From NCBI RefSeq assembly GCF_044324785.1, contig NZ_CP172127.1: a stretch of 64,000 bases of DNA. One strand, given 5' to 3'. Positions 27,379-61,462 of this stretch are shown piece by piece (the stretch's first letter is position 1; the number at the start of each line of letters is the position of its first letter). The position numbers were made by a program, and so were the translations under genes. This stretch comes from Escherichia coli (GTDB lineage: Bacteria; Pseudomonadota; Gammaproteobacteria; Enterobacterales; Enterobacteriaceae). Below the pieces are notes generated by a model. It was not told the origin of the DNA. It did not search any database and saw only the letters and a list, made by a program, of their open reading frames with translations.

Positions 27379-27416
27379 AGGAAAATCGCTCAATGAAAGT
27401 CGGGAGGGGAAAATAA

Positions 27417-27746
<330 letters not shown>

Positions 27747-27775: not shown

Positions 27776-27791
27776 GAACTCTGAATCGCAC

Positions 27792-29267
27792 TTAACCTGC
27801 AACAGCAATACGTTTCATATCCGTCATATAGCCGCGCAGTTTCTTACCTACCTGCTCAATCGCATGGCTGCGAATCGCTTCGTTCACATCACGCAACTGC
27901 GCGTTATCTACCGCACCTTCCGGAATAGCTTTACCCAGGTCGCCCGGTTGCAGCTCTGCCATAAACGGTTTCAGCAGCGGCACACAAGCGTAAGAGAACA
28001 GATAGTTACCGTATTCAGCGGTATCAGAAATAACCACGTTCATTTCATACAGACGCTTACGGGCGATGGTGTTGGCAATCAGCGGCAGTTCGTGCAGTGA
28101 TTCATAGTAAGCAGACTCTTCGATGATGCCGGAATCAACCATGGTTTCAAACGCCAGCTCAACGCCCGCTTTTACCATCGCGATCATCAGTACGCCTTTA
28201 TCGAAGTACTCCTGCTCGCCGATTTTGCCTTCATACTGCGGCGCGGTTTCGAACGCGGTTTTGCCGGTCTCTTCACGCCAGGTCAGCAGTTTCTTATCGT
28301 CGTTGGCCCAGTCAGCCATCATACCGGAGGAGAATTCGCCGGAGATGATATCGTCCATATGTTTCTGGAACAGCGGTGCCATGATCTCTTTCAATTGCTC
28401 AGAGAGCGCGTAAGCGCGCAGTTTCGCCGGGTTAGAGAGACGGTCCATCATCAGCGTGATGCCGCCCTGTTTCAGTGCTTCGGTGATGGTTTCCCAACCG
28501 AACTGAATTAGTTTTTCTGCGTATGCCGGATCGGTGCCTTCTTCCACCAGCTTGTCGAAGCACAGCAAAGAGCCAGCCTGCAACATGCCGCACAGGATGG
28601 TTTGCTCGCCCATCAGGTCAGATTTCACTTCCGCAACGAAGGACGATTCCAGCACGCCCGCACGGTGACCACCGGTTGCTGCCGCCCATGCTTTAGCGAT
28701 CGCCATGCCTTCGCCTTTCGGATCGTTTTCCGGGTGAACGGCAATCAGCGTCGGTACGCCGAATCCACGTTTGTACTCTTCACGCACTTCGGTGCCCGGG
28801 CATTTCGGCGCAACCATTACTACGGTGATGTCTTTACGGATCTGCTCTCCTACTTCCACGATGTTGAAACCGTGCGAGTAACCCAGCGCCGCGCCATCTT
28901 TCATCAACGGCTGTACGGAACGCACAACGTCGGAATGCTGCTTATCCGGCGTCAGGTTAACCACCAGATCCGCCTGCGGGATCAGTTCTTCGTAAGTACC
29001 AACTTTAAAGCCGTTTTCGGTCGCTTTACGCCAGGACGCGCGCTTCTCGGCAATCGCTTCCTTACGCAGAGCGTAGGAGATATCGAGACCAGAATCACGC
29101 ATGTTCAGGCCCTGGTTCAGACCCTGTGCGCCACAGCCGACGATGACCACTTTTTTACCCTGAAGGTAGCTCGCGCCATCGGCGAATTCATCGCGCCCCA
29201 TAAAGCGACATTTGCCCAGCTGTGCCAGCTGCTGGCGCAGATTCAGTGTATTGAAGTAGTTAGCCAT
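27792..29267 (-). CDS. ilvC: Ketol-acid reductoisomerase, 491 aa
   Basis: Start at [17 protein letters not shown]...; the ORF track adds 74 upstream codons that run into the ilvY promoter region. Confidence 0.95.
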
Positions 29268-29416
29268 GGTGATTCCTCGTGATGTTGTGCTTCTTATTGT
29301 TCGGTTCGCGTTTGCGAGATTGAATTCACTATATGACAGGAAATTTATTGCGGAAATTGATATATTCACAACGTCACATTGCAATTTCTGCAACGTCAAC
29401 ATCGAGGGCTGCGCCT
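29268..29416. promoter_or_regulatory. Divergent ilvY / ilvC promoter-operator region
   Basis: 149-bp spacer between divergent starts; location of the IlvY operators is established knowledge, individual sites not mapped here. Confidence 0.55.
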
Positions 29417-30307
29417 GTGGATTTACGCGATCTGAAAACCTTCCTGCATCTGGCGGAAAGCCGCCATTTTGGCCGTAGCGCGCGGGCAATGCACGTTAGC
29501 CCGTCTACGCTTTCGCGACAAATACAGCGCCTGGAAGAAGATCTCGGTCAGCCGCTGTTTGTGCGTGATAACCGCACGGTAACGCTGACGGAAGCGGGCG
29601 AAGAACTGCGCGTTTTCGCCCAGCAAACACTGTTGCAATATCAGCAATTGCGCCACACCATCGACCAGCAAGGGCCGTCGCTCTCTGGTGAATTACATAT
29701 CTTCTGCTCGGTGACCGCTGCCTACAGCCATCTTCCACCGATTCTCGACCGCTTCCGCGCGGAACATCCGTCAGTGGAGATCAAACTCACTACCGGTGAT
29801 GCGGCCGATGCGATGGAAAAGGTGGTCACTGGCGAAGCGGATCTGGCGATTGCGGGTAAACCGGAAACCTTGCCGGGCGCAGTGGCGTTTTCGATGCTGG
29901 AGAATCTGGCGGTGGTGCTGATTGCTCCCGCGCTGCCCTGCCCGGTGCGTAATCAGGTATCTGTCGAAAAGCCCGACTGGTCTACAGTGCCGTTTATCAT
30001 GGCCGATCAGGGACCGGTACGCCGCCGCATTGAACTGTGGTTTCGGCGTAACAAAATCAGCAACCCAATGATTTACGCCACGGTTGGCGGGCATGAAGCG
30101 ATGGTATCGATGGTGGCGCTCGGCTGTGGCGTGGCGCTGTTGCCGGAAGTGGTGCTGGATAACAGCCCGGAACCGGTGCGTAACCGCGTGATGATTTTAG
30201 AGCGCAGTGATGAAAAAACGCCGTTTGAGCTGGGCGTGTGCGTACAAAAAAAGCGGCTTCATGAGCCGCTGATTGAGGCGTTCTGGAAGATTTTGCCGAA
30301 CCACTAA
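29417..30307 (+). CDS. ilvY: LysR-type regulator IlvY, GTG start
   Basis: Start at GTG ([23 protein letters not shown]...), helix-turn-helix at the N-terminus; the ORF track begins 28 codons upstream. Confidence 0.88.
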
Positions 30308-31848
30308 CCCGCCAAAAAGAACCTGAACGCCGGGTTATTGGTTTCGTCGTGGCAATCGTAGCCCAGTTCATTCAGCCGGGTTTCAAAATCCGGTTCATGA
30401 TCGCCAAGCTCGAACGCCGCCAGTACGCGCCCGTAGTCGGTACCGTGGCTGCGATAATGGAACAGCGAGATGTTCCAGTGCGTACCCAGCGTGTTGAGGA
30501 AGCGCAGCAGCGCGCCCGGTGATTCCGGGAATTCGAAGCTGTATAGGCGTTCCTGCAACGGATGCGATGGACGCCCGCCAACCATATAGCGCACGTGTAG
30601 CTTCGCCATTTCGTCGTCGGAGAGATCAACCACGCTGTAGCCGCCGTCGTTGAGCATCTGCAAAATTTCTTTGCGCTCTTCGAGACCGCGGCTCAGGCGC
30701 ACGCCGACAAAAATGCAGGCGTTTTTGGCATCAGCAAAGCGGTAGTTGAACTCGGTGACCGAGCGCCCACCAAGTAACTGGCAGAATTTGAGGAAGCTGC
30801 CCTTTTCTTCCGGAATGGTCACCGCCAACAACGCTTCACGCTGTTCGCCCAGTTCGCAGCGTTCCGAGACGTAGCGCAGACCGTGAAAGTTCACGTTGGC
30901 ACCGGAAAGAATATGCGCCAGCCGTTCACCGCGAATGTTGTGCTGGGCGATGTATTTTTTCATCCCTGCCAGCGCCAGCGCGCCAGAGGGTTCAGCCACC
31001 GCGCGTACATCTTCGAACAGGTCTTTCATCGCCGCACAGATGGCATCGCTATCGACGGTGATGATGTCGTCAAGATACTCCTGGCACAAACGGAAGGTTT
31101 CATCGCCGATGCGTTTTACCGCGACGCCTTCAGCAAACAGCCCCACGCGGGGCAGATCAACGGGATGACCCGCATCCAGCGCTGCTTTCAGGCAGGCGGA
31201 ATCTTCCGCTTCCACGGCGATCACTTTGATTTGCGGCATCAGTTGTTTGATCAGTACCGCGACGCCCGCCGCCAGACCGCCGCCGCCGACCGGTACAAAT
31301 ACGCGGTCGAGATGGGCGTCCTGCTGGAGCAGTTCCAGCGCCAGCGTGCCTTGCCCGGCGATCACCATCGGATGGTCGAACGGCGGTACCCAGGTGAAAC
31401 CCTGCTGCTGTGACAGTTCGATCGCTTTCGCTTTCGCTTCATCGAAATTTGCGCCGTGAAGCAGCACTTCGCCGCCAAAGCCGCGCACCGCATCAACTTT
31501 GATATCGGCGGTGGCGGTTGGCATGACGATCAGCGCCTTCACGCCTAACCGTGCGGAAGAAAACGCGACGCCCTGCGCGTGGTTACCCGCAGAAGCGGTG
31601 ATCACGCCGTGCGCTTTTTGTTCTTCCGTCAGGCCCGCCATCATGGCGTATGCGCCGCGCAGCTTAAAGCTGTGTACTGGCTGGCGATCTTCGCGCTTCA
31701 CCAGAATCACGTTATCAAGACGCGACGACAGTTTTTCCATTTTCTGTAGCGGCGTGACCTGCGCCGCTTCGTAGACCGGCGCGCGCAGCACCGCTCTTAA
31801 ATATTCGGCACCTTCCGGGGTACCGGACAGGGGTTGCGAGTCAGCCAT
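30304..31848 (-). CDS. ilvA: Threonine deaminase (biosynthetic), 514 aa
   Basis: 514 aa ORF with PLP-dependent fold and C-terminal regulatory domains. Confidence 0.95.
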   Translation of the reverse strand: MADSQPLSGTPEGAEYLRAVLRAPVYEAAQVTPLQKMEKLSSRLDNVILVKREDRQPVHSFKLRGAYAMMAGLTEEQKAHGVITASAGNHAQGVAFSSARLGVKALIVMPTATADIKVDAVRGFGGEVLLHGANFDEAKAKAIELSQQQGFTWVPPFDHPMVIAGQGTLALELLQQDAHLDRVFVPVGGGGLAAGVAVLIKQLMPQIKVIAVEAEDSACLKAALDAGHPVDLPRVGLFAEGVAVKRIGDETFRLCQEYLDDIITVDSDAICAAMKDLFEDVRAVAEPSGALALAGMKKYIAQHNIRGERLAHILSGANVNFHGLRYVSERCELGEQREALLAVTIPEEKGSFLKFCQLLGGRSVTEFNYRFADAKNACIFVGVRLSRGLEERKEILQMLNDGGYSVVDLSDDEMAKLHVRYMVGGRPSHPLQERLYSFEFPESPGALLRFLNTLGTHWNISLFHYRSHGTDYGRVLAAFELGDHEPDFETRLNELGYDCHDETNNPAFRFFLAG

Positions 31849-31850
31849 TA

Positions 31851-33701
31851 TTAACTCCCCAGTTTCGATTTATCGCGCACCGCACCTTTGTCGGCGCTGG
31901 TTGCCAGGCTGGCGTAGGCGCGCAACGCAAAGGAGACCTGACGTTCGCGATTTTTCGGCGTCCAGGCTTTGTCGCCACGAGCTTCCTGCGCTTCACGACG
32001 CGCCGCCAGTTCGGCATCGCTTACCTGTAACTGAATGCCACGGTTGGGAATGTCGATAGCGATAAGATCGCCGTCTTCAATCAGACCAATGCTGCCGCCG
32101 CTTGCCGCTTCCGGCGAGACGTGGCCGATGGAAAGACCAGAGGTGCCGCCGGAGAAGCGTCCGTCGGTGATCAGCGCGCAGGCTTTACCGAGACCCATTG
32201 ATTTCAGGAAGCTGGTTGGGTAGAGCATTTCCTGCATCCCCGGACCGCCTTTCGGGCCTTCGTACCGGATCACCACTACATCGCCAGCGACAACTTTGCC
32301 GCCGAGAATCGCTTCTACCGCGTCATCCTGGCTTTCGTACACTTTCGCCGGGCCGGTGAATTTGAGGATGCTGTCATCGACGCCCGCGGTTTTAACAATG
32401 CAGCCGTTTTCTGCGAAATTACCGTAGAGCACCGCCAAGCCGCCGTCTTTGCTGTAGGCGTATTCCAGCGAGCGGATACAGCCGTTTGCGCGATCGTCAT
32501 CGAGAGAATCCCAACGGCAATCCTGCGAGAATGCCTGTGTAGTACGAATGCCAGCAGGGCCTGCGCGGAACATATTTTTAACCGCGTCATCCTGGGTCAG
32601 CATAACGTCGTATTGTTCCAGCGTTTGCGGCAACGTCAGGCCAAGCACGTTTTTCACATCACGGTTCAGTAACCCCGCGCGATCCAGTTCGCCAAGAATA
32701 CCGATAACACCACCAGCACGATGAACATCTTCCATATGGTATTTCTGGGTGCTCGGCGCAACTTTACACAGCTGTGGAACCTTGCGGGAGAGCTTATCAA
32801 TATCACTCATGGTGAAGTCGATTTCCGCTTCCTGCGCCGCCGCCAGCAGGTGAAGTACCGTGTTGGTAGAGCCGCCCATCGCGATATCCAGCGTCATGGC
32901 ATTTTCAAACGCCGCTTTGCTAGCAATATTGCGCGGCAGTGCACTTTCGTCGTTTTGCTCGTAGTAACGTTTGGTCAATTCAACAATGCGTTTACCGGCA
33001 TTGAGGAACAGCTGCTTGCGATCGGCGTGGGTCGCCAGCAGCGAGCCGTTGCCCGGCTGCGACAGGCCCAGTGCTTCGGTCAGGCAATTCATAGAGTTAG
33101 CGGTAAACATCCCGGAGCAAGATCCGCAGGTTGGACAGGCGGAACGTTCAACCTGATCGCTCTGGGAGTCAGAAACTTTCGGGTCTGCGCCCTGGATCAT
33201 CGCATCAACCAGATCGAGCTTAATGATCTGATCGGACAGTTTGGTTTTCCCGGCCTCCATCGGACCGCCGGAAACAAAGATCACCGGAATATTCAGGCGC
33301 AGGGAAGCCATCAGCATCCCCGGGGTGATTTTGTCGCAGTTAGAGATGCAGACCATAGCGTCGGCGCAGTGGGCGTTGACCATATATTCAACGGAATCAG
33401 CGATCAGTTCGCGAGATGGCAGTGAATAAAGCATGCCCCCGTGGCCCATAGCGATCCCATCATCCACCGCAATGGTGTTGAACTCTTTGGCAACGCCGCC
33501 AGCCGCTTCAATTTGTTCGGCGACCAGTTTACCGAGATCGCGCAGATGGACGTGACCCGGTACAAATTGGGTGAACGAGTTCACAACCGCGATAATCGGC
33601 TTACCGAAATCGGCGTCGGTCATTCCGGTGGCGCGCCACAGCGCACGAGCACCCGCCATATTACGACCATGAGTGGTGGTGGCGGAACGGTACTTAGGCA
33701 T
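31851..33701 (-). CDS. ilvD: Dihydroxy-acid dehydratase, 616 aa
   Basis: 616 aa ORF; ilvD/edd family motifs. Confidence 0.95.
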
Positions 33702-33765: not shown

Positions 33766-34695
33766 TTATTGATTAACTTGATCTAACCAGCCCCATTTAT
33801 CTTCGGTTTCGCCAGTGAAGAGGCCGAAGAAGGCTTGCTGAATGCGTTTGGTAACCGGGCCACAACGGCCTTCGCCAACCTGAATACCGTCTACGCTGCG
33901 CACTGGCGTGATTTCTGCCGCCGTACCGGACATAAACACTTCATCCGCCAGATACAGGGATTCGCGCGACAGCACCTGCTCACGCACTTCAATTCCCAGC
34001 TCTTTCGCCAGTTTGATGATGGCGTCACGGGTAATACCCGGCAGCGCGGATGAGGTGAACGGTGGGGTGAACAGCACACCGTCTTTCACTTCAAACAGGT
34101 TTTCGCCTGCGCCTTCAGAGATATAACCGTTCACATCCAGCGCGATACCTTCCTGATAACCGTGGCGGCGCGCTTCGCTACCCACCAGCAGGGAAGAGAG
34201 GTAGTTACCACCGGCTTTTGCCGCCGTCGGGATGGTGTTTGGTGCTGCGCGGTTCCAGGAGGAAACCATCGCATCGATCCCCTGCTCCAGCGCTTCTGCG
34301 CCCAGATACGCTCCCCACGGGAAAGCGGCGATAATTACATCGGTTGAGTATCCCGCTGGCGGGTTAACGCCCATACCAACATCACCGACGAAGATCAGCG
34401 GACGGATATAGGCGCTGGTGAGATTGTTTTTGCGGATCACGTCACGACAAGCTTCCATCAGCTCATCAATGCTCTGCGAAACCGGGAAGCGATAGATTTT
34501 GGCGGAGTCATGCAGACGCTGCATATGCTCACGATGGCGGAATACAACCGGTCCTTTGTGCGAGTCGTAGCAACGGATGCCTTCAAAAACCGAGGTGCCA
34601 TAGTGCAGCGCGTGCGACATCACATGCACCTTCGCGTCTTTCCAGCGAACCATCTCCCCATTGAACCAAATGTAATCAGCTTTCTTCGTGGTCAT
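33766..34695 (-). CDS. ilvE: Branched-chain amino acid aminotransferase, 309 aa
   Basis: Start at MTTKKADYIWFNGEM...; the ORF track adds 22 codons. Confidence 0.95.
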   Translation of the reverse strand: MTTKKADYIWFNGEMVRWKDAKVHVMSHALHYGTSVFEGIRCYDSHKGPVVFRHREHMQRLHDSAKIYRFPVSQSIDELMEACRDVIRKNNLTSAYIRPLIFVGDVGMGVNPPAGYSTDVIIAAFPWGAYLGAEALEQGIDAMVSSWNRAAPNTIPTAAKAGGNYLSSLLVGSEARRHGYQEGIALDVNGYISEGAGENLFEVKDGVLFTPPFTSSALPGITRDAIIKLAKELGIEVREQVLSRESLYLADEVFMSGTAAEITPVRSVDGIQVGEGRCGPVTKRIQQAFFGLFTGETEDKWGWLDQVNQ

Positions 34696-34714: not shown

Positions 34715-34978
34715 TCAGGCGCGGATTTGTTGTGATGTGGTTGTGCTCTGGCAGATGGCAACGTGTGCGACGTCCACCAGTTTATTTAACTGACTAAACA
34801 GTAAGTCGACCGACCGTGGGCTGGCAACGGTCAATTCGATATTTATATTTTGTGCATCGCTGGCGGCAGCCATATTCATTGAGCAGACGTGGAAACCACG
34901 ATGACGCACCACGCGTAAAACACGTTCTAAGGTTTCTGGATTGAAGCGAGCCGATACATTGACCTGATGTTGCATCAT
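34715..34978 (-). CDS. ilvM: Acetolactate synthase II small subunit, 87 aa
   Basis: 87 aa ORF whose start overlaps the ilvG stop (ATGA). Confidence 0.92.
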
Positions 34979-36621
34979 GATAATTTCTCCAACATTTCTG
35001 AATTACTGGCACCAGGCGGCACCAGCGGCCAGACATTCTCAAGTTCGTCGATTGAGACATGAAGCAGGTATGGCCCATCACTGTTCAGCATGGTGTCGAG
35101 TGCCGCTTCAACCTGGTCTTTACGGGTGATGTGTTGGCCAGGGATGCCGAAGGCGCTGGCTAACATGAGGAAATCGGGGTTATCAGTAAGGGTGGTTTCG
35201 CTGTATCGTTCCTGAAAAAACAGTTGCTGCCATTGTCGAACCATCCCTAACCGTTGGTTATCGAGTAAGACGATTTTCAACGGTAACTGCTTGCGTTTTA
35301 CGGTGCCCAGCTCTTGCACATTCATCATGAAAGAGCCGTCACCGGAGATACAGACGACGGTATCGTTCGGTCGCGCGACTTGTGCGCCAACCGCCGCTGG
35401 TAAACCAAAACCCATGGTGCCTAAGCCGCTAGAGGTGATGAAATTTTCCGGGCGAGTGTGGGCGATGTGCTGCGCAGCCCACATCTGGTGCTGCCCCACA
35501 TCTGTGGTCACGACGCAATCCGCAGGTTTACGATCCGACAGTTGTTTTAACAACAACGGCGCGTAGATAGCGTCACCGGGATGGTCGTAACGCCAGGAAT
35601 GTTCATCACGCAGCTGCGCGCAGTGTTGCTGCCAGTCATTGATATTTAACGGCTGCTGTAATGCTGGTAACAGAGCATTTAAATCGCCTTGTAATGCCAC
35701 ATGTGCCTGACGCAGCTTGTTCATTTCTGCCGGGTCGATATCCATATGGATAACACTGGCGTGTGGTGCGAAGGTGTTCAGTTTGCCGGTCACCCGGTCA
35801 TCAAAACGTGCACCCACGGCGATCAGCAAGTCGCACTCCTGCACCGCGAAGTTCGCCGCTTTGGTGCCATGCATTCCCAGCATGCCCAGATAGTACGGAT
35901 AATCTGCTTCAACTGCGCCCAGCCCTTTCAGCGTGCAGGTGGCAGGCATTTTTGTGGTAGCGAGAAATTCTCGTAAAGCAGGAACTGCCTGCGCCATACC
36001 TACGCCCCCGCCAACGTACAGCATCGGTTTTTGCGCTTTTGCCAGCATCTGGCGCGCTTGCTCAACTTCGGCATGTGGGAAAGTCACTTCGTTTTCAACG
36101 GTGGTGAACCACGGTTCCAGGTCACCGCTGGCTAGCTGGATATCTTTTGGGATATCGACCAGAACCGGACCAGGACGACCTGAGCTGGCAACGTCGAATG
36201 CTTCAGCCATAATGCGCGGCAACTCTTCAAGCGACTGCACCAGAAAGCTGTGCTTGGTACAGGCTAACGACAATCCCAGGACATCCACTTCCTGAAATGC
36301 GTCAGTGCCGATAAACGGTGCGGACACTTGACCGGTGATGGCAACAACAGGGATGGAATCTAACAGTGCGTCCGCAAGCCCGGTTATCAGGTTGGTTGCG
36401 CCCGGACCAGACGTGGCGATACATACGCCAGTTTTGCCGGTAGCACGGGCATAACCGATAACCGCCATTGCCGCACCCTGCTCATGTCGGCACAGCAAGT
36501 GCTCCACGCCGCCGTCATACAATGCATCGTAAACCGGCATAATTGCGCCACCCGGATAACCGAAAACGGTATTCACACCCTGTGCCCGCAACGCATGTAC
36601 CACCCACTGTGCGCCATTCAT
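34975..36621 (-). CDS. ilvG: Acetolactate synthase II large subunit, intact 548 aa reading frame
   Basis: Single uninterrupted 548 aa ORF with ThDP-binding motifs; no internal frameshift or stop. Confidence 0.93.
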
Positions 36622-36623
36622 AG

Positions 36624-36674
36624 TTAGTTCCCCGTCCTGAATCTTGAGAAACAGAATTTTGTGCTGTTATTCAT
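36624..36674 (-). CDS. ilvX: Small peptide IlvX, 16 aa
   Basis: Manually translated [16 protein letters not shown] between the attenuator and ilvG, matching the recalled ilvX peptide. Confidence 0.55.
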
Positions 36675-36703: not shown

Positions 36704-36736
36704 CAAAAAAAACCCCCGGACCTTTCGGTGCGGGGG
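36704..36736 (-). terminator. ilvLXGMEDA attenuator terminator
   Basis: CCCCCG / CGGGGG hairpin followed on the minus strand by U8, directly downstream of ilvL. Confidence 0.8.
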
Positions 36737-36760: not shown

Positions 36761-36859
36761 CTAAGCCTTTCCTCGTCCAAGTGCAGCCCCGCACGGTGGG
36801 ATAATAATCACCACCACGCTAATCACGACCAGGCTAATCACTCGTAGAAGGGCTGTCAT
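36761..36859 (-). CDS. ilvL: ilv operon leader peptide, 32 aa, rich in Val, Ile and Leu
   Basis: Manually translated MTALLRVISLVVISVVVIIIPPCGAALGRGKA with runs of regulatory Ile/Val/Leu codons. Confidence 0.88.
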   Translation of the reverse strand: MTALLRVISLVVISVVVIIIPPCGAALGRGKA

Positions 36860-43478: not shown

Positions 43479-43671
43479 TCACAACCCGAAGATGTTTCTT
43501 TCGATTCATCATCGTGTTGCAAAAATTTGAGAGACTCACGAACAACTTTCGTTGTTCAGTGTTTCAATTTTCAGCTTGATCCAGATTTTTAAAGAGCAAA
43601 TATCTCAAACATCACCCGAAGATGAGTTTTGAGATATCAAGGCAGGTGACTTTCACTCACAAACCAGCAAG

Positions 43672-43832: not shown

Positions 43833-45374
<1,542 letters not shown>

Positions 45375-61184: not shown

Positions 61185-61462
61185 CGATCTACTGTGGATA
61201 ACTCTGTCAGGAAGCTTGGATCAACCGGTAGTTATCCAAAGAACAACCGTTGTTCAGTTTTTGAGTTGTGTATAACCCCTCATTCTGATCCCAGCTTATA
61301 CGGTCCAGGATCACCGATCATTCACAGTTAATGATCCTTTCCAGGTTGTTGATCTTAAAAGCCGGATCCTTGTTATCCACAGGGTAGTGCGATCCTAATA
61401 AGAGATCACAATAGAACAGATCTCTAAATAAATAGATCTTCTTTTTAATACCCAGGATCCCA
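61185..61462. other. oriC: Chromosomal replication origin oriC
   Basis: DnaA boxes at 61193-61201 (R4), 61232-61240 (R3-like TTATCCAAA), 61267-61275 (R2, TTATACACA) and 61373-61381 (R1); three AT-rich 13-mers at 61395-61438; about 15 GATC sites within roughly 320 bp. Confidence 0.92.

Follow-up and report, generated by a model that had tools for sequence, protein, structure and literature searches.

The window, that is, the whole stretch of 64,000 nucleotides of Escherichia coli DNA analysed here, very probably comes from a natural E. coli outside the K-12 lineage, whose ilvG is full-length and in its normal, ancestral state within a complete ilv operon; IlvG and IlvM would together constitute acetohydroxyacid synthase II (AHAS II), and valine-resistant growth is to be expected. 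The features on which this reading is based are listed in Table 1. The intact ilvG is real, but it is ordinary and already known. The sole element of some follow-up value is the substitution A54V, which is found in ilvG of the window and in none of the complete E. coli genomes searched.

Table 1. Features of the ilv operon in the window (positions on the 64,000-nucleotide stretch)
Feature	Position	Strand	Description	Basis
ilvA	30304..31848	minus	514 aa threonine deaminase, last gene of the operon; intact	3 amino-acid differences from K-12
ilvD	31851..33701	minus	616 aa dihydroxy-acid dehydratase; intact	4 amino-acid differences from K-12
ilvE	33766..34695	minus	309 aa branched-chain aminotransferase; intact	1 amino-acid difference from K-12
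ilvM	34715..34978	minus	87 aa, small subunit of synthase II	ORF list; NF008362
ilvG CDS	34975..36621	minus	548 codons + TGA; AHAS II catalytic (large) subunit	ORF list
ATAT tandem dinucleotide	35644-35647	minus	gene nt 975-978	MG1655 alignment and junction-word searches
codon 54 GTT (Val)	36460..36462	minus	A54V; T versus C at gene nt 161	
ilvX	36624..36674	minus	16-codon small ORF directly upstream of ilvG	DNA and protein identical to K-12 b4669
attenuator terminator	36705..36736	minus	GC-rich hairpin CCCCCGCACC-GAAA-GGTCCGGGGG followed by T8	read from the sequence; identical to K-12
ilvL	36761..36859	minus	32-codon leader peptide rich in Ile, Val and Leu codons (MTALLRVISLVVISVVVIIIPPCGAALGRGKA)	identical to K-12 b3766

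According to the ORF list, ilvG starts with ATG, contains no internal stop codon and is 1647 nt long. The uninterrupted frame of 548 codons had been described beforehand in a sequence-only reading, with the right coordinates and without the strand, and the ORF list bears it out. The same reading had described an ATGA overlap of ilvG with ilvM, which could be verified, as the letters tcat at positions 34975-34978 of the plus strand read ATGA on the minus strand. This overlap of the TGA of ilvG with the ATG of ilvM implies that the two genes may be translationally coupled. The IlvG protein matched the NCBIfam equivalog model NF006524 (acetolactate synthase 2 catalytic subunit) with 1073.5 bits at a curated cut-off of 738 bits, and residues 1-547 were aligned with profile positions 1-547 of 548, i.e. 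over the full length; the generic model TIGR00118 came second with 715.6 bits. An ORF of 1647 nt with a full-length equivalog match above the cut-off is far beyond chance, and by family membership the gene is ilvG, encoding the catalytic subunit of acetolactate synthase 2. The exact protein is on record as WP_395765590.1 / XJR00112.1, 'acetolactate synthase 2 catalytic subunit [Escherichia coli]', and occurs on just two to three contigs in public databases. The Pfam domains TPP_enzyme_N, TPP_enzyme_M and TPP_enzyme_C (PF02776, PF00205 and PF02775) are recorded for this identical protein and for all close homologues. The key residues A26, E47, F109, M250, R276, V375, M460 and W464 are all found in IlvG at the expected numbers (E47 is catalytic, and the others are among the residues studied in E. 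coli AHAS II), and the GDG...DN cofactor/Mg motif is present at residues 427-455. The closest solved structure by sequence was that of E. coli AHAS I (6LPI; E 1.3e-161, residues 2-544), and the list of solved-structure matches to IlvG held no structure labelled E. coli AHAS II.

The claim that the K-12 frameshift is absent from this ilvG was confirmed by global alignment with the MG1655 ilvG pseudogene b4488 (NC_000913 3950560-3952204, 1645 nt, against 1647 nt in the window). The alignment revealed 33 substitutions (~2%) and one 2-bp indel, at which the window reads TTAAATATCAATGA and K-12 reads TTAAATCAATGA; the frame of the window is open. The AT that is additional relative to K-12 lies at gene nt 977-978 (window 35644-35645), within the tandem dinucleotide ATAT. 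K-12 has a single AT at this site and reads Leu-Asn-Gln-stop, with the TGA at codon 328; one AT unit of ATAT has thus been lost in K-12, which gives its gene the frameshift and the premature stop codon. The K-12-type pseudogene lesion, i.e. one AT lost at gene nt 975-978, was not found in the window, which reads through. It is this loss of one AT unit that the alignment gives beside the passage on ilvG in PMC3032704. When compared with the K-12 reading, 29 of the 33 substitutions are synonymous and four change an amino acid (A54V, C146S, A222T and Q494P), a pattern that would be expected under purifying selection.

The operon ilvL-ilvX-ilvG-ilvM-ilvE-ilvD-ilvA is complete and collinear with that of K-12, and all of its genes are intact. 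The two other AHAS isozymes, encoded by ilvBN and ilvIH, are located outside the window. The IlvM protein is identical to K-12 IlvM and scored 133.9 bits with NCBIfam NF008362 (synthase 2 small subunit), for which the cut-off is 68. Identity to K-12 is 100% over the 279 bp upstream of ilvG, a stretch that comprises ilvL, the attenuator and ilvX. A match to Rfam RF02744 (36641-36930, minus strand, 157 bits) takes in the ilvL leader and attenuator; this family is named 'Rev39_5p_UTR' and was described from soft-rot Enterobacteriaceae, and from the match it therefore corresponds to the leader of the ilv operon. A simple terminator scan of the minus strand did not call the ilv attenuator, for which one mismatch in the stem, noticed by eye, may be the reason; the attenuator was called from its identity with K-12 and from the Rfam match.

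Intact ilvG had been presented as noteworthy, an assessment that did not hold when the gene was followed through complete genomes. The gene was present in 5,425 of 5,426 complete E. coli genomes. Among 40 records sampled across the ranking, ilvG spanned 1647 nt in 37 and 1645 nt in two (NEB Turbo and TP6-3), and was truncated in one. The frequencies of the intact and of the K-12 form were estimated in the 5,426 genomes with junction words, i.e. a 52-mer and a 54-mer centred on the lesion. The K-12 52-mer was found exactly in 340 genomes, and the five carriers among the matches listed (ER1709, a K-12 strain, XL1-Blue, TP10-1 and C600) are all laboratory strains of K-12 type; a further 4,438 genomes matched this word only with a two-base gap. 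For the 54-mer of the intact junction there were 1,416 genomes with an exact match and ~3,200 more with a single substitution, and by this estimate at least ~4,400 of the 5,426 genomes have the intact junction. ilvG is also known to be intact in strains B, W and Crooks (PMC3032704, PMC3446290), and valine resistance in strain B is mediated by ilvG (PMC3446290). ALS II was reported to be essential for growth of CFT073 in urine, where MG1655 is defective through its frameshift (bioRxiv 10.1101/2025.10.31.685768, preprint). From the genome counts and the published strains, the intact gene is the usual state; K-12 and not the window is the exception, and little weight attaches to the finding itself.

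The residue at position 54 bears on the activity of the enzyme. A 55-mer with the Val54 codon had no match among the 5,426 complete E. coli genomes, while the same 55-mer with an Ala codon was found in 5,361. In a diverse set of 150 AHAS large subunits, 40-58% identical to IlvG except for two near-identical fragments, position 54 was Ala in 147, Thr in one, Val in none and a gap in two, i.e. Ala in 147 of 148 aligned sequences. The catalytic Glu47 was kept in 148 of the same set, and Ala54 is hence equally conserved. Ala54 was also found in all 120 of the nearest cluster representatives (Escherichia, Citrobacter, Salmonella, Enterobacter and Klebsiella). The diverse set was obtained from a search of 50%-identity representatives, in which the best match had 56% identity. 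The 90%-identity cluster that holds IlvG is represented by an unrelated protein of 1041 aa, and other members of 1041 aa are named as Bacteroides CusA/CzcA efflux protein; this representative is apparently a clustering artefact and probably the reason for the best match of 56%. Inspection of the family-invariant positions of IlvG thus showed a substitution at position 54, by which family membership is unaffected. Residue 54 is located seven positions past the catalytic Glu47. The stretch from Glu47 to residue 54 is helical in this enzyme family and, if this holds here, residue 54 lies on the same face of the helix as Glu47. Among seven E. coli alleles, ilvG of the window has four private sites, of which A54V is the only nonsynonymous one; the three synonymous sites, at gene nt 393, 621 and 936, were not seen in the six alleles compared.

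It is unlikely, although of all alternatives the least so, that A54V cripples the enzyme as a missense loss-of-function mutation or strong hypomorph, so that the strain, despite its open frame, would be sensitive to valine or grow poorly when isoleucine is limiting. Such an effect would be in line with the conservation of Ala54, which equals that of Glu47 (147 Ala versus 148 Glu in the diverse set) and is complete in the 120 close representatives, and with Val54 being found nowhere else, neither in the 5,426 genomes nor in the diverse and close homologues. As the exact protein occurs on only two to three contigs, it is moreover probably of recent origin, with little exposure to selection so far. 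Against this, the exchange of Ala for Val is conservative and one homologue has the beta-branched Thr at this position; ilvG shows no other decay, with no further private nonsynonymous change and three of four private sites synonymous; ilvM and the downstream genes are intact; and the literature searched for A54V and acetolactate synthase gave no link between this residue and loss of function. Given a conservative exchange and no further decay in ilvG, the enzyme is judged to be probably functional. The prediction of valine resistance is nevertheless weakened somewhat, because the private A54V affects a nearly invariant residue. There is a small chance that A54V lowers the activity or stability of AHAS II, making the strain a natural missense ilvG-deficient, valine-sensitive E. 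coli, or that it changes cofactor binding or inhibitor sensitivity. If A54V did impair the enzyme, the open frame alone would not predict the valine phenotype, and the substitution would mark a functionally important residue for which no earlier study was found.

That either the open frame or A54V is an artefact of sequencing or assembly is very improbable. Nothing specific speaks for it, other than that some assemblies do contain wrong single bases or indels at short repeats. The sequence is not considered an assembly artefact because an independent assembly of reads (Logan, ERR13187251) is 100% identical over 7,647 bases, with all of ilvG included. The same protein is also found in an NCBI record on a contig of 5.48 Mb, and the ATAT site agrees with thousands of genomes.

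The source had been proposed to be either a non-K-12 strain or an ilvG+ revertant, of which only the first part stands, with ilvG diverging from K-12 by ~2% and the window by ~1.4-5.3%. In reverse orientation, the 64-kb window runs collinear with K-12 3923184-3988058, from mnmG and oriC through hemX. Identity to K-12 over the aligned segments was 94.7-98.6%, i.e. 98.3% for ilvA-mnmG, 97.6% for rep-aslB, 95.5% for aslA-hemY and 94.7% for ilvC-ilvY, and, in short segments, 96.4% for ppiC and 98.6% for an end piece of 138 bases. It is scarcely conceivable that the DNA comes from a K-12 derivative with a reverted ilvG frameshift (a valine-resistant mutant of the ilvG+ or 'ilvO' kind), as the open frame and the identical 279 bp upstream are all that would fit, against 33 substitutions within the 1.6 kb of ilvG, the divergence of the whole window, the absence of both the yifN stretch and the K-12 spacer between ilvA and ilvY, and a frame that is carried by the natural ATAT, as in thousands of isolates, where described laboratory revertants have regained the frame on a K-12 backbone by deletion of one base, T or G, of the premature TGA (PMC8605374). 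The revertant was consequently rejected both on divergence, the identity to K-12 being below ~100%, and on the kind of sequence that keeps the frame open. By its intact ilvG, the source is identified as a natural E. coli that is not K-12.

Several further differences from K-12 were observed along the window. A K-12 stretch of ~830 bp with the yifN pseudogene (NC_000913 3959830-3960660) has no counterpart at window 27394-27449, where ppiC and rep almost adjoin, as they do in strain N3. The ilvC-ilvY segment (window 27787-30307), with 94.7% identity to K-12 against 98.3% for the adjoining ilvA-mnmG segment, looks like a divergent or recombinant patch, as judged from these identities. ilvA and ilvY converge, and their 3′ ends share 4 bp (window 30304-30307), as is also annotated in N3, whereas K-12 has a spacer of 51 bp. 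By collinearity with K-12 3925744-3925975, oriC is expected between mioC and mnmG at window ~61207-61438, and the window is therefore taken to span the replication origin.

The nearest complete genome was that of the human isolate N3 (NZ_CP031609.1), which is 99.24% identical over 49.8 kb and whose ilvG also measures 1647 nt. Over these 49.8 kb, the differences from N3 are distributed very unevenly. A single base is missing from N3 at each of the sites matching window 38381 and 20002, and yifB and wecA are annotated as frameshifted in N3; both genes are intact in the window. When the rRNA operon is compared with the same operon of N3, indels and substitutions group in small clusters in the 23S region, at window 43499-43521 and 44352-44373. 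The ilv region is 99.8% identical to that of N3 over 9.8 kb, and ilvG alone 98.9% identical. Of the ~25 differences between the two ilvG genes, 18 cluster in gene nt 115-1024. Import of a recombination tract into ilvG of the window was considered as a cause and rejected, as a comparison of seven alleles showed that most of the differences are specific to N3 and that the window has only four sites of its own. It is ilvG of N3 that carries the patch of divergence at nt 115-558, and the best match of the tract of the window anywhere was 98.9%. Identities of ilvG of the window to other E. coli alleles ranged from 94.8 to 98.9% and were no better than 98.9% in the set of 5,426 genomes. The pattern between N3 and the window is one of ordinary allelic mosaicism. 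The record NZ_CP026085.1, labelled 'Escherichia coli strain DH5alpha' (4.83 Mb), was 98.9% identical to the ilvG tract of the window over its full 931 bases and had the intact length; MG1655 was ~97.3% identical over the same 931 bases, with a 2-bp gap. NZ_CP026085.1 is thus without the K-12 ilvG allele expected of DH5alpha.

IlvG is an enzyme that uses thiamine diphosphate, FAD and Mg2+. Together with IlvM it forms AHAS II, the isozyme without feedback inhibition by valine, which condenses pyruvate either with a second pyruvate or with 2-ketobutyrate. Expression of the ilv operon is set by attenuation at ilvL, which responds to charged Ile, Val and Leu tRNAs. In the source of the window, IlvG would be expected to pair with the small subunit IlvM to give this enzyme, and expression would presumably be regulated by attenuation at the ilvL leader and the terminator, both of which are identical to K-12. 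As ilvG is in frame, translation would proceed into ilvM, and ilvMEDA should be free of the polarity exerted by the K-12 frameshift. The expected phenotype would be growth on minimal medium with valine. We infer enzyme activity and valine resistance from established knowledge of AHAS II, qualified by A54V. What is predicted is ordinary valine-resistant synthesis of branched-chain amino acids, as documented for B, W, Crooks and CFT073.

The wild-type ilvG of B/REL606, W, Crooks, CFT073 and O157:H7 has the same length of 1647 nt, the same ATAT, the same ATGA overlap and the same operon order as the window. The alleles of N3, 503025, 19-7 and O157 differ from IlvG of the window by three to four amino acids. 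What sets ilvG of the window apart from the wild-type E. coli alleles is the private A54V and three rare synonymous changes. K-12 b4488 occupies the same locus with the same neighbours and has an identical promoter, leader, attenuator and ilvX, but stops at codon 328 and has C146, A222 and, in its dead 3′ part, Q494. The IlvG proteins of Salmonella, Citrobacter and Enterobacter are 91-94% identical to that of the window, comprise 548 aa and have the same Pfam architecture, but in contrast to the window they all have Ala54. E. coli IlvB of AHAS I (6LPI), a valine-sensitive paralogue, shares the fold and chemistry of IlvG, but has IlvN as its partner and is encoded in a different operon.
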